Source of the DNA: Escherichia coli
GTDB lineage: Bacteria; Pseudomonadota; Gammaproteobacteria; Enterobacterales; Enterobacteriaceae
NCBI RefSeq assembly: GCF_003334785.1
Contig: NZ_QOWV01000003.1
Length of the DNA stretch: 64,000 nt
Strand: one strand, 5' to 3'
Shown: positions 57,901 through 60,900 of the stretch, piece by piece
Layout: every line of letters starts with the position of its first letter
Numbering within the stretch: position 1 is the first letter of the stretch
Made by a program: the position numbers

Positions 57901-60900
57901 ACCTAAAGGTATGAGAACACTGTCGTTTTTCATATACAAAGGGTGCTTCGGCTCACCTGTAGCGTTTAAGACGAAGCACATTGTGCTCTCTGGCAATAGC
58001 TGTCGGACGGTCGTTGAGCGTTTGAGGTGTCTTCCTTCATTTCCCCATGCGGCGACAACCAGTCCGGCACCGCTAACAAGACGTATCAAGTGGCTATCGT
58101 TATCTTTGCCAATGGGATCAGACGCTTTCATCATTTCATGTCGCTGGGTGTGAACGAATGCGAACAGGTTGGCCATGTATACGCCACCGTAGCCCCAGCT
58201 TTTGGCAAACGATATGCAGCGGCTCAAGGTGCGATCATCCTTCTCAGCATCGGCGTATGAAGGGTTTAGCCCTATGAAAAGGGCATATGGTTTTGATTCG
58301 TCCCAGACTCGTGATAACGAGTAGCGATATTGACCGCACGGTGAAAAATCGCGTCTTTAATCATTTCGGTTGTCCTTATGAAGTGATGGTTTCAGCCTAA
58401 CATGTCTTTATCCGTTTTAAGCGCCAACAAACGACCGTTTTCTGGCACCTCCCAATCGCACGCTTTCACACTGTTGGAAAAATAGCCTTGGCTTTTCTGG
58501 CAGGCCATCCTAATGTTGGCCTCGTTTTCTGGCAGGGGTCAGATGGGGAGATAACAATGGCAACTTTTGGCTACGGACGTGTTTCGACATCGCAGCAGGA
58601 TACTGAGAACCAACGGCTGGAGCTTGGGCAGGCTGGGTGGCAAATTGATTACTGGTTTGCCGATGTTGTTAGCGGGAAGGTTCCGGCAATGCAACGTAAA
58701 GCATTTTCTGAAATGCTCAATAAAATCCGCGATGGTGAAACGTTGGTGGTAGCGAAGCTTGATCGTCTGGGGCGTGATGCGATTGACGTCTTGCAAACGG
58801 TAAGGGCGCTGGCTGACCGTAATATCAAGGTTCTTGTCCACCAGCTTGGTAACACAGATCTCACTTCTGCCGCTGGGAAGTTGCTATTATCTATGCTCGC
58901 CGCGGTTGCGGAGATGGAGCGTGATCTGCTGATTGAGCGCACTCAGGCGGGACTATCACGAGCAAAAGCCGAAGGTAAGAAATTGGGCAGACCTCCTAAA
59001 ATCGCGTCAGAAGCCCGTAGAGAGATTTTAGAGAAAAAGAATAGCGGTTTGAGTATCAGTGCGTTAGCGCGTCAATATGGCGTTTCAAGAGCGACTGTAG
59101 CAGCTATTACCGATTGAATATGGAGAGTTTATGGCTTACACAGCAACTGTTATCCCTGTAATGATTGCTTCTCCTGGTGATGTCGCTGAAGAGAGACAAG
59201 TCATTCGTGAAATGATCCATGAGTGGAATGATATAAATTCAGCTCGTTCAAAAGTAATGTTGACACCAATTGGATGGGAAACTCATACATCACCCGAATT
59301 AGGAGTTAGGCCTCAGGAGTTGATTAATCAAAGATTATTAGTAGATTGTGATTTATTAATCGGTGTGTTTTGGACTCGTCTAGGCTCACCGACTGGGAAC
59401 GAGGCCAGCGGAACAGTCGAAGAAATCCACCGTCATTTGAATGCGGGAAAACCGGCAATGATTTACTTTTCCTCAAAGCCTGTTGCCCCTGAAAGCCTTG
59501 ATAGAGAACAATATGAGTCTCTTAAATTGTTCAAAACTGAGTGCATGCAAAAGGGATTGATAGAGTCTTTTAATGACTTATCTGATTTCAAAGAAAAAGT
59601 CCGTAGGCAACTTTCGATAATTATTTCTAGTAGCCCTTATTTGTCTTCTCTTATATCTACCATTAACAATTCTCCTGATGCGAATACAAGTCAATCTTTG
59701 CCAGAAAGTAATTTGTCCGCCGATGCACTCAGTTTGCTGAAATTAGCATGTGTCGATGATAGCGGAACAATTTATGTGATAAGGCATTTAGGTGGCACGG
59801 ATATTCAAGCGGGAAATCAATCCTTTGGTGGAAGTTCGGCTAGAGAGGTAGCCCGTTGGGAGGGCGCACTTAACGAACTGTTATCCTTTGATTTTGTGAT
59901 TGAAAGAGGGGCAAAAGGACAAATGTATTATGTTACTCATAAAGGCTGGACATTTCTTGAATCTTTAAATGAATAATTAAATGCGAGGTCATTACATAAG
60001 TTTATTTTTGATGTTAGGGTGAATTCCCTCACATTTTTATTCGAAAGAGGCCGCAATGACTTCTCCTGTTTTTGCGTTGAAAACACAAAAGTATTGAAGC
60101 GGAGCTAGCATCCCCAAGCTGTTAACTACCTTAGCTTGTTGCCCAAATGCCTGAATAATCTTCGCGTTCTCATCGTGCCAGAGATAAGTATTAAATACAG
60201 GCGCTTCGCTTTCTTGCCACACATGGCGAAACTTCGCTTTCTCATCCATTACCTTTTTGCACTCCCTGACCGGGTTATGGTGCGTTTTCGCATAGCATTC
60301 CGGGTTGTCATCTGCACATACGATATCTTTTCGTGCTGTCTGATGCTCAGCACCTACAGCAGAAAAGGCGCATACGCCCAGCACCAATGAGAGAGTGCCC
60401 AGAGCACCCCATACAGTTGCGCGTAGCGTGCTGATGTGCTGCTTTGATACAGCATGGGCAACTACACTATAACTGGCCCAGCTAATCGCGGCTCCCGCTG
60501 CAATCGGTAATAAAAAGTCTGCTCCCGTCATGATTCCCTCACTTTCCAAACCACATCGCGCCTGATAGCGAACGCTGGTGACGCCCAACCGATGATGATC
60601 ATCATACTTGTTGGGTTTTAAATGTCACCATTGGTGTTTGTTTTGAATCAAAAAGGATTGTCATGATACAGCCGATGAATGCTAGTGACTAAGCTCGCTG
60701 AAGTGAGATTGGATTCAAAATATCTCATATGGAGCGTGGCCTTACAGTGGTCAAAATTGCACATTCAGTGCATGAAAAAATCCCTGAGAATACAGTTTGG
60801 CGAGCGGGTAAAAGAACTGCGCATTGCCACCGGATTGAGCCAAGAGGCCTTTGCCGATCGGTGCGGGTTTGCACGTAGTTATATGAGCAGAATTGAACGT

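Follow-up and report, generated by a model that had tools for sequence, protein, structure and literature searches.

We analysed a window of 64,000 nt of Escherichia coli DNA (contig NZ_QOWV01000003.1 of assembly GCF_003334785.1; all coordinates refer to this stretch), in which an island integrated at the tRNA gene leuX carries two adjacent genes of the same orientation, one encoding a small serine recombinase and the other a 281-aa protein with a DUF4062-type N-terminus and a C-terminal auxiliary (AUX) domain. The initial annotation presented these genes, together with short direct repeats upstream of the recombinase, as a tightly coupled two-gene defence module, possibly mobilised by the recombinase or phase-variable. 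The genes and the parts of the 281-aa protein are as follows.

58557-59117, plus strand: small serine recombinase of the resolvase/invertase type, 186 aa, with the catalytic-serine motif YGRVSTSQQ at the N-terminus
59122-59127, plus strand: Shine-Dalgarno-like GGAGAG of the 281-aa open reading frame (ORF), as read from the sequence
59131-59976, plus strand: DUF4062-AUX protein, 281 aa (WP_000331917.1), predicted single-gene anti-phage NADase
59131-59502, plus strand: residues 1-124 of this protein, TIR-like/NDT-like Rossmannoid core
59503-59718, plus strand: residues 125-196, helical stalk and then disordered Ser-rich linker (from the secondary structure and predicted local distance difference test score, pLDDT, of the AlphaFold2 model)
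59719-59973, plus strand: residues 197-281, winged-helix (MarR-like) AUX domain, predicted sensor

The ORF of the 281-aa protein was described correctly: the stop codon of the recombinase gene (59115-59117) is followed by a 13-nt gap containing GGAGAG and by ATG at 59131. The AlphaFold2 model of the full-length protein (pLDDT 79) consists of a beta-alpha-beta Rossmannoid core at residues 6-114, helices 125-140, 150-167 and 169-179, a disordered Ser-rich stretch at 180-192, and a compact C-terminal domain; the loop at residues 51-61 is modelled with low confidence. The core has a TIR/NDT-like fold of the flavodoxin type. The match of the protein itself to Pfam PF13271 (DUF4062) is weak (independent E-value 3.1e-4, residues 10-99), and the same profile is matched by 30 of 30 aligned homologues at E<=0.1 and by 19 of them at E<=0.001, with no rival family matched consistently. 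Moreover, the first 165 positions of the PADLOC profile PDC-S60 align to residues 8-167 (5.8e-27), and some alleles carry the RefSeq name "DUF4062 domain-containing protein". With PDC-S60 the protein shares the DUF4062 domain only, the remaining ~740 of the 906 profile positions having no counterpart in it. Comparison with sequences from PDB yielded no match at E<=1, searches of NCBIfam and PHROGs assigned it to no family, and tblastn against phages gave no match. The DUF4062/TIR-like character of the N-terminus, as initially proposed, is thus supported both by the PF13271 match and by the TIR/NDT-like fold of the model.

The core contains the motifs ASPGD (positions 13-17), W49-E50, D72/D74, FWTR (80-83) and S93-G94-T95-x-E98. 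Comparison with distant DUF4062 proteins from plasmids of Enterococcus, Rhodococcus and Nostoc shows that A13-S-P-G-D17, R22, N33, E50, D74, S93-G-T95 and E98 are retained, while the neighbouring E97 varies. Since E98 (codon 59422-59424) is also unchanged in 30 family members and is invariant where E97 is not, it is predicted to be the catalytic glutamate.

Proteins of this architecture have recently been described in two preprints. DUF4062 was shown to be a TIR-like NADase, and bacterial single-gene DUF4062 proteins with a C-terminal auxiliary domain were named the defence system Swarozyc (Osinski et al., bioRxiv 10.64898/2026.05.01.722283). In particular, KpSwz comprises a TIR-like domain, intertwined helical stalks and an AUX domain of the HTH (helix-turn-helix)/winged type; when AUX binds the phage portal, NAD+ is hydrolysed and infection is aborted, which needs the catalytic Glu as well as AUX; the tests also covered homologues from E. 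coli/Shigella, Yersinia, Salmonella and Acinetobacter (10.64898/2026.05.01.722283). Evangelion (Eva01-Eva04) follows the same logic: NAD+ falls on infection, AUX is required, and escape mutations map to phage recombination and replication genes (Ibarra-Chavez et al., bioRxiv 10.64898/2026.06.25.731849).

As the window protein has the same architecture as Swarozyc and Evangelion, it most likely belongs to the DUF4062 (TIR-like, NAD-degrading) class of single-gene anti-phage proteins, of which it is a new, uncharacterised member, the class having been described only in 2026 preprints. Like KpSwz from Klebsiella pneumoniae (WP_202404386), it is encoded by a single gene and combines a DUF4062 TIR-like N-terminus, a catalytic Glu, a stalk and an HTH/winged AUX domain, and like Swarozyc its gene is found in enterobacterial defence islands. 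Judging by motif context (SGTxE here, "SYT...E" in Eva01), E98 would match E97 of KpSwz and E87 of Eva01. The trigger of KpSwz is the portal; compared with the KpSwz clade by description and residue numbering, the window protein may represent a separate lineage with a different trigger. With Evangelion it shares a DUF4062 core joined to a diversified AUX in a single gene, the W-E motif (W49-E50 here) and carriage on mobile elements. Unlike the window gene, Eva01 resides on a Staphylococcus aureus plasmid, and its AUX, which has not been described as a winged helix, binds recombination-like DNA. No Staphylococcus plasmid matched the window protein in tblastn at E<=1e-3, and DUF4062 proteins of enterococcal plasmids have only residues 4-159 in common with it (35% identity). 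About 155 Enterococcus plasmids carry a 333-aa DUF4062 protein with a different C-terminal region (e.g. L096, E. faecalis p1_EfsC23_rep9a, 1495-2496), adjoined by an Abi-family gene, a RelE/ParE toxin-antitoxin pair and a plasmid recombinase; this protein may be the Evangelion lineage there.

The initial annotation pointed out that STAND NTPases or partner enzymes, which usually accompany such domains, are absent from the locus. None is indeed present, but this is normal for the class, since in the characterised relatives the protein's own C-terminal AUX domain acts as the sensor (Osinski et al. 2026; Ibarra-Chavez et al. 2026).

The family is large and widespread. In a protein collection clustered at 90% identity it has over 2,000 members, and at 50% identity it is matched at E<1e-30 by 1,239 clusters, almost all of them full length (~280 aa). 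Gene neighbourhoods were surveyed in 80 loci, one genome per species and each from a different species, which spread over Proteobacteria, Planctomycetota, Nitrospirota, Chlorobiota, Bacteroidota, Acidobacteriota, Bacillota, Verrucomicrobiota and one archaeal metagenome-assembled genome (MAG), that of a Methanotrichaceae member (L085). A recombinase homologue lies directly upstream, at 14 bp, in three of the 80 loci, all counted as enterobacterial, namely a "Collinsella" contig (100% identical), an Enterobacteriaceae MAG and Citrobacter. All-against-all clustering of ~600 neighbouring ORFs from these loci revealed no recurrent neighbour besides the recombinase. In Kangiella the gene is a lone insert amid housekeeping genes, and in Stutzerimonas it comes after a HEPN gene. 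Because of this lone distribution across species and the lack of a conserved neighbour, the 281-aa protein is considered to be a stand-alone unit. As for the defence-island neighbourhoods expected of its homologues, the E. coli cargo slot is shared with defence systems (see below), and no partner gene is conserved in the 80 loci.

Two observations concern the sequence collections themselves. The "Collinsella" contig (L010, JAIJJM010000048.1, labelled Collinsella sp. MAG, 9.9 kb), in which both genes have 100% amino acid identity to those of the window, almost certainly represents E. coli sequence that ended up in an actinobacterial MAG through mis-binning. In the collection clustered at 90% identity, the window protein (cluster 4) is grouped with members named "recombinase family protein" of 164-197 aa; this is probably an artefact of the clustering, to which read-through or gene calls fused over the 13-bp gap may have led.

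Different parts of the protein are conserved to a different extent. The mean identity across phyla is 77% in the core (residues 1-124), 40% in the stalk (125-170), 25% in the linker (171-196) and 49% in the winged helix (197-281). In a second E. coli allele (P0005), 65% identical to the window protein and located at the same place in the same island, the AUX region is the most diverged one. Such fast divergence of AUX would be as expected for a sensor. The core identity of 77% over distant phyla (loci L013-L089) is unusually high for a defence gene and suggests that the gene either spread widely by recent horizontal transfer or is under very strong constraint.

The adjacent gene was correctly recognised as a Hin/resolvase-like serine recombinase: its product matches Pfam Resolvase (1.4e-36, residues 4-142) and HTH_7 (residues 144-181), as well as PHROG 125 (1e-55). 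Its closest relatives among solved structures are the gamma-delta and Tn3 resolvases (1e-25), followed by Gin (6e-23), and YGRVSTSQQ aligns with the active-site segment of gamma-delta resolvase. E. coli homologues of the recombinase gene with nucleotide identity of 75-88% sit in the same island backbone, including those with 80-88% identity in backbones without the DUF4062 gene. The order of the backbone is integrase, NIPSNAP, cargo slot A, res-like site (see below), recombinase, cargo slot B, small membrane or hypothetical protein, HTH regulator; islands of this type are ~7-10 kb long and occupy leuX, thrW and a tRNA-Gly gene. The contents of the two slots vary.

UTI89 and VCSW8: slot A, Gabija (GajA 4e-283, GajB 9e-235); slot B, empty
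O157:H7: slot A, DUF1643; slot B, two unrelated minus-strand genes
DG341-1: slot A, DUF1643 and NUDIX; slot B, HNH endonuclease
C8: slot A, DUF6602 / PD-DExK nuclease; slot B, PDC-M18A/B
RS571: different left arm without integrase; same recombinase and DUF4062 genes as in the window

Thus, the recombinase belongs to the backbone, and slot B accommodates several alternative cargoes, among them the DUF4062 gene. Two of the slot B contents have no PADLOC match, those of O157:H7 (438-aa and 250-aa hypothetical proteins, L091 5769-7989) and of DG341-1 (371-aa HNH endonuclease, L092 5658-6773); as they occur where defence genes sit in other islands, they are candidates for uncharacterised defence genes. 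Homology of the window to the cargo-less UTI89 island stops in the last codons of the recombinase (59104) and restarts at 60037, and in the DUF4062-bearing alleles the cargo boundary falls within the last codons of the recombinase gene. A search of the slot B boundaries for a recombination site found no motif similar to the site upstream of the recombinase (site I, see below). The junction formed by the stop codon, the ribosome-binding site and the start codon is identical in the diverged allele L003, which would be consistent with co-transcription of the recombinase and DUF4062 genes.

Small islands at tRNA hotspots of E. coli, carrying defence genes and an integrase or recombinase with no other mobility genes, are known as "integrase-only" islands (Hochhauser, Millman and Sorek 2023, PMC10121019), and the window island resembles them in its small size, its tRNA hotspot and its defence cargo. 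The passages of that paper retrieved by term contain no mention of a res-like site or of arm exchange at such a site, which are observations of the present analysis.

That the 281-aa protein is not immune at all, being a winged-helix regulator, a nucleotide-salvage enzyme (NDT, Rcl, MilB-like) or a toxin that stabilises the island, agrees with its NDT-like matches and its MarR-like domain. Still, we regard this as unlikely, given the patchy distribution driven by horizontal transfer with lone insertions, the defence systems found in the E. coli cargo slot elsewhere, the demonstrated defence by NAD+ depletion of homologous DUF4062+AUX proteins, the quick, sensor-like diversification of AUX, and the insertion sequence (IS) elements that break the locus in some strains. 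An anti-phage effector that processes NAD or nucleotides, as was originally suggested, is the best reading for the 281-aa protein in a defence-rich mobile island.

Even less probable is an obligate two-gene defence module, in which the recombinase would, for example, switch the effector or target phage DNA. The two genes do share a strand with a gap of just 13 bp, their junction is kept in two diverged E. coli alleles, in Citrobacter and in the Enterobacteriaceae MAG, and the two genes have diverged jointly, next to a left flank that is nearly identical. However, in ~77 of the 80 species loci there is no recombinase beside the gene, and no other neighbour is conserved either; the same recombinase occurs with slot B empty (UTI89, VCSW8) or holding unrelated genes on the opposite strand; and the characterised DUF4062+AUX proteins act as single genes. 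The proposed tight coupling of recombinase and effector, and with it an unnamed two-gene system, is therefore not supported, as the family stands alone in ~77 of 80 loci and the recombinase occurs in E. coli islands without the DUF4062 gene.

The region upstream of the recombinase gene contains the repeats noted initially and a longer site, of which the first repeat is a part.

58422-58447: putative crossover site ("site I"), 26-bp imperfect palindrome CGCCAACAAACG-AC-CGTTTTCTGGCA, with the centre AC at 58434-58435
58436-58447, plus strand: repeat copy 1, CGTTTTCTGGCA, the right half of site I
58491-58502, plus strand: repeat copy 2, GCTTTTCTGGCA, candidate accessory half-site, present in 5 of 7 alleles and lost in L003 and L011
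58523-58534, plus strand: repeat copy 3, CGTTTTCTGGCA, 22 bp before the recombinase start, candidate accessory or operator half-site, present in 7 of 7 alleles

The three direct repeats are real and conserved, but only two of them are exact copies (CGTTTTCTGGCA at 58436 and 58523, the one at 58491 being the variant GCTTTTCTGGCA), and the core shared by all three is the 10-mer TTTTCTGGCA. This 10-mer occurs three times within 100 bp, and nowhere else in the 64-kb window is it matched exactly. All alleles have in common a conserved stretch of 125 bp before the recombinase, in which the motif is located at -119, -64 and -32; since these positions are kept before diverged recombinase alleles, the repeats are not a chance occurrence.

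The arms of site I are complementary in 9 of 12 positions in the window and in 6-10 of 12 across ten loci (6 of 12 only in L003). These ten loci carry five mutually unrelated left arms, and all of them end in the left half-site TGYMANNAAWCG, the centre AC being invariant. The similarity of left arms between loci ends ~13 nt to the left of the site I centre, and partial matches of E. coli genomes to the region begin at 58423-58429. Breakpoints of homology fall at the centre, where the unrelated left arms meet the recombinase module. In particular, identity between the window and L003 is 100% up to 58436 and drops to 65-75% beyond it. The same left arm is combined with diverged right arms in the window as compared with L003 and L091, and the reverse is seen in RS571 (L093), where the right side is 99% identical to that of the window and the left arm is different. 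Breakpoints distributed in this way would be expected from recombination at a resolvase crossover site.

In Tn3-family elements such as gamma-delta and Tn3, the res region consists of three subsites just upstream of the resolvase gene, the crossover subsite being the distal one. The window shares with these elements a serine recombinase of ~185 aa with a C-terminal HTH, a region of ~115 bp with a repeated motif upstream of its gene and a putative palindromic crossover-type site at the distal end, and the island family to which it belongs shows mosaic elements with breakpoints at site I. Unlike Tn3, the window island has neither a transposase nor terminal inverted repeats and integrates into a tRNA gene by means of a tyrosine integrase; moreover, the recombinase is only ~35-40% identical to gamma-delta resolvase, and the putative accessory subsites are not clearly dimeric. 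Because of the arm-breakpoint pattern and the layout resembling Tn3-family res, we infer that the repeats are putative binding sites of the recombinase, that the recombinase is a predicted resolvase, and that arms with their defence cargo would be exchanged at site I. The initial suggestion of a recombinase-mobilised unit is right only in another sense, namely that the repeats mark a res-like site of whole-arm exchange. In the retrieved passages of the paper on "integrase-only" islands we found no description of a res-like exchange site of this kind, and it is the less expected part of the locus.

In DG341-1 (L092 4316-4878) a NUDIX hydrolase cassette lies exactly at the site I centre, after ...AAACGA, and on each side of it stands a copy of the left half-site in the same orientation, GCGCCAACAAACGA and CTGCCAATAAACGA. 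The insert could be a captured cassette or a remnant of two tandem sites.

Two other arrangements were considered and set aside. Reading copies 2 and 3 as dimer sites via upstream TGTTGG motifs is speculative, as L091 and L092 have not conserved these motifs. The inverted repeat I16 (58391-58403 / 60011-60023), which brackets the gene pair, was rejected as a pair of cassette ends: it is 13 nt long with 92% complementarity, one of 36 similar pairs, and its left arm belongs to the DUF1643-type flank, which L090 and L093 lack although they have the same recombinase module.

Phase variation, for which a Hin/Gin-type invertase would flip a promoter or gene segment and so turn the DUF4062 gene on and off, is the least credible reading, for although the best PHROG and NCBIfam families of the recombinase are named "DNA invertase" and "Mpi invertase", Gin nearly matches gamma-delta resolvase in score, and with its 12-bp arms and 2-bp centre the 26-bp site is of the same size as hix/gix, there is a single full site with no inverted copy in the island at up to 2 mismatches, the region 58300-60100 is collinear with the query in 384 E. 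coli genomes (the split matches among those listed being IS insertions only), and the NCBIfam Mpi match reaches 98 bits against a cut-off of 272.

The setting of the pair in an island at leuX is as initially described: the tRNA gene is tRNA-Leu(CAA), and its last 28 bp are repeated at 61716-61743, so that the island bounded by these att repeats is 7.3 kb long. Its other features are listed below.

54342-54426, plus strand: leuX, tRNA-Leu(CAA), the target for island integration (ARAGORN; RefSeq annotation of Nissle 1917)
54402-54429: left copy of the 28-bp att direct repeat, GGTTCGAGTCCGGCCTTCGGCACCAAGT, the 3' end of leuX (exact 28-mer)
54475-56427, plus strand: tyrosine integrase of the island, ~636-650 aa, with DUF6538 and Phage_integrase domains
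57898-58364, minus strand: DUF1643 gene, frameshifted, filling slot A to the left of the res-like site (RefSeq annotation)
60037-60531, minus strand: 164-aa membrane protein of the island backbone, right edge of cargo slot B (RefSeq; PHROG 20749, 1.6e-102)
60772-61236, plus strand: HTH (Xre-type) regulator, backbone gene present in every island variant examined
61716-61743: right copy of the 28-bp att repeat and end of the island (exact match to the copy at 54402)

The gene order in the window island is integrase, NIPSNAP, frameshifted DUF1643, recombinase, 281-aa gene, 164-aa membrane protein (minus strand) and HTH regulator. Homologues of the membrane protein occupy the equivalent position in L090, L092 and L094. 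The position of DUF1643 is taken by other cargo in other islands; the gene is frameshifted also in Nissle 1917 and intact (155 aa) in the allelic islands L002-L006 and in O157:H7. Past the right att repeat, a 274-aa AbiJ-NTD4 protein is encoded at 62274-63098 (plus strand; PADLOC PDC-S32, 5.6e-104), a second defence-type unit in tandem with the first at the leuX locus, and a type I restriction-modification system and McrA adjoin an allelic island. Of 5,426 complete E. coli genomes, 384-392 carry a locus identical to that of the window, Nissle 1917 and ATCC 25922 among them. In a few E. coli the locus is broken by IS elements (IS1 in two records and IS26 in one; NZ_CP123593.1, NZ_CP123592.1, NZ_CM176321.1), and annotation of the IS26-bearing record gives two recombinase fragments; such interruptions are consistent with occasional inactivation.

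Taken together, these data make it probable that the 281-aa gene constitutes a complete abortive-infection system by itself, one of the DUF4062+AUX class, and that the recombinase is a separate, resolvase-type gene of the island backbone. By analogy with KpSwz and Eva01, the 281-aa protein would rest as an autoinhibited oligomer until its winged-helix AUX domain binds a trigger made by the phage, which is the portal for KpSwz and replication or recombination intermediates for Eva01. The recombinase would bind site I and the repeats and resolve island multimers or tandem copies, and reassortment of island arms and their defence cargo would be a by-product of this resolution. The recombinase probably autoregulates its own promoter, and this promoter may also drive the DUF4062 gene, given the 13-bp gap and the lack of a predicted terminator.

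Several observations weigh against this interpretation. On the side of the 281-aa protein, the NADase activity, abortive infection and trigger are all predicted by analogy, and the winged helix could bind DNA instead of a phage protein. The catalytic Glu of KpSwz is at about residue 83 after removal of a mis-annotated N-terminus of ~14 aa, as against 98 here (a comparison of numbering only), this difference in spacing being partly due to the longer, low-confidence loop 51-61 of the window protein; and the W238/Y239 hairpin of KpSwz, compared by description, has no obvious counterpart. On the side of the recombinase, its sequence by itself does not separate a resolvase from an invertase; only one complete dimer-type site was decoded, copies 2 and 3 being without convincing inverted partners; copy 2 is lost in two alleles; and the left junction of the NUDIX cassette has the centre AT instead of AC, which misfits simple insertion by a serine recombinase. 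Finally, a scan for promoters and terminators around the pair gave nothing above background, and no strong promoter was seen upstream of the recombinase.

A broader possibility, which we put forward tentatively, is that the resolvase and its res-like site form a dedicated platform for the exchange of defence cargo in "integrase-only" tRNA islands, and, as a separate matter, that the winged-helix DUF4062 lineage senses a trigger other than the portal. Recombination at 58422-58447 between co-resident islands or excised circles would then swap arms and capture cassettes, such as the NUDIX insert. If true, this platform would be a serine-recombinase counterpart of the integron-style shuffling of cargo, and would explain both the diversification of the defence repertoires of these islands and the expression of the DUF4062 gene from a resolvase-controlled promoter.

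In Nissle 1917 and ATCC 25922 the window allele of the 281-aa protein is labelled in RefSeq as a hypothetical protein only, and the class assignment predicts a phage-resistance determinant in these widely used strains and points to E98 and the winged helix. The result for the recombinase corrects the tempting but wrong two-gene inference, and arm exchange at one 26-bp site would provide a concrete mechanism for the reassortment of cargo in small "integrase-only" islands.

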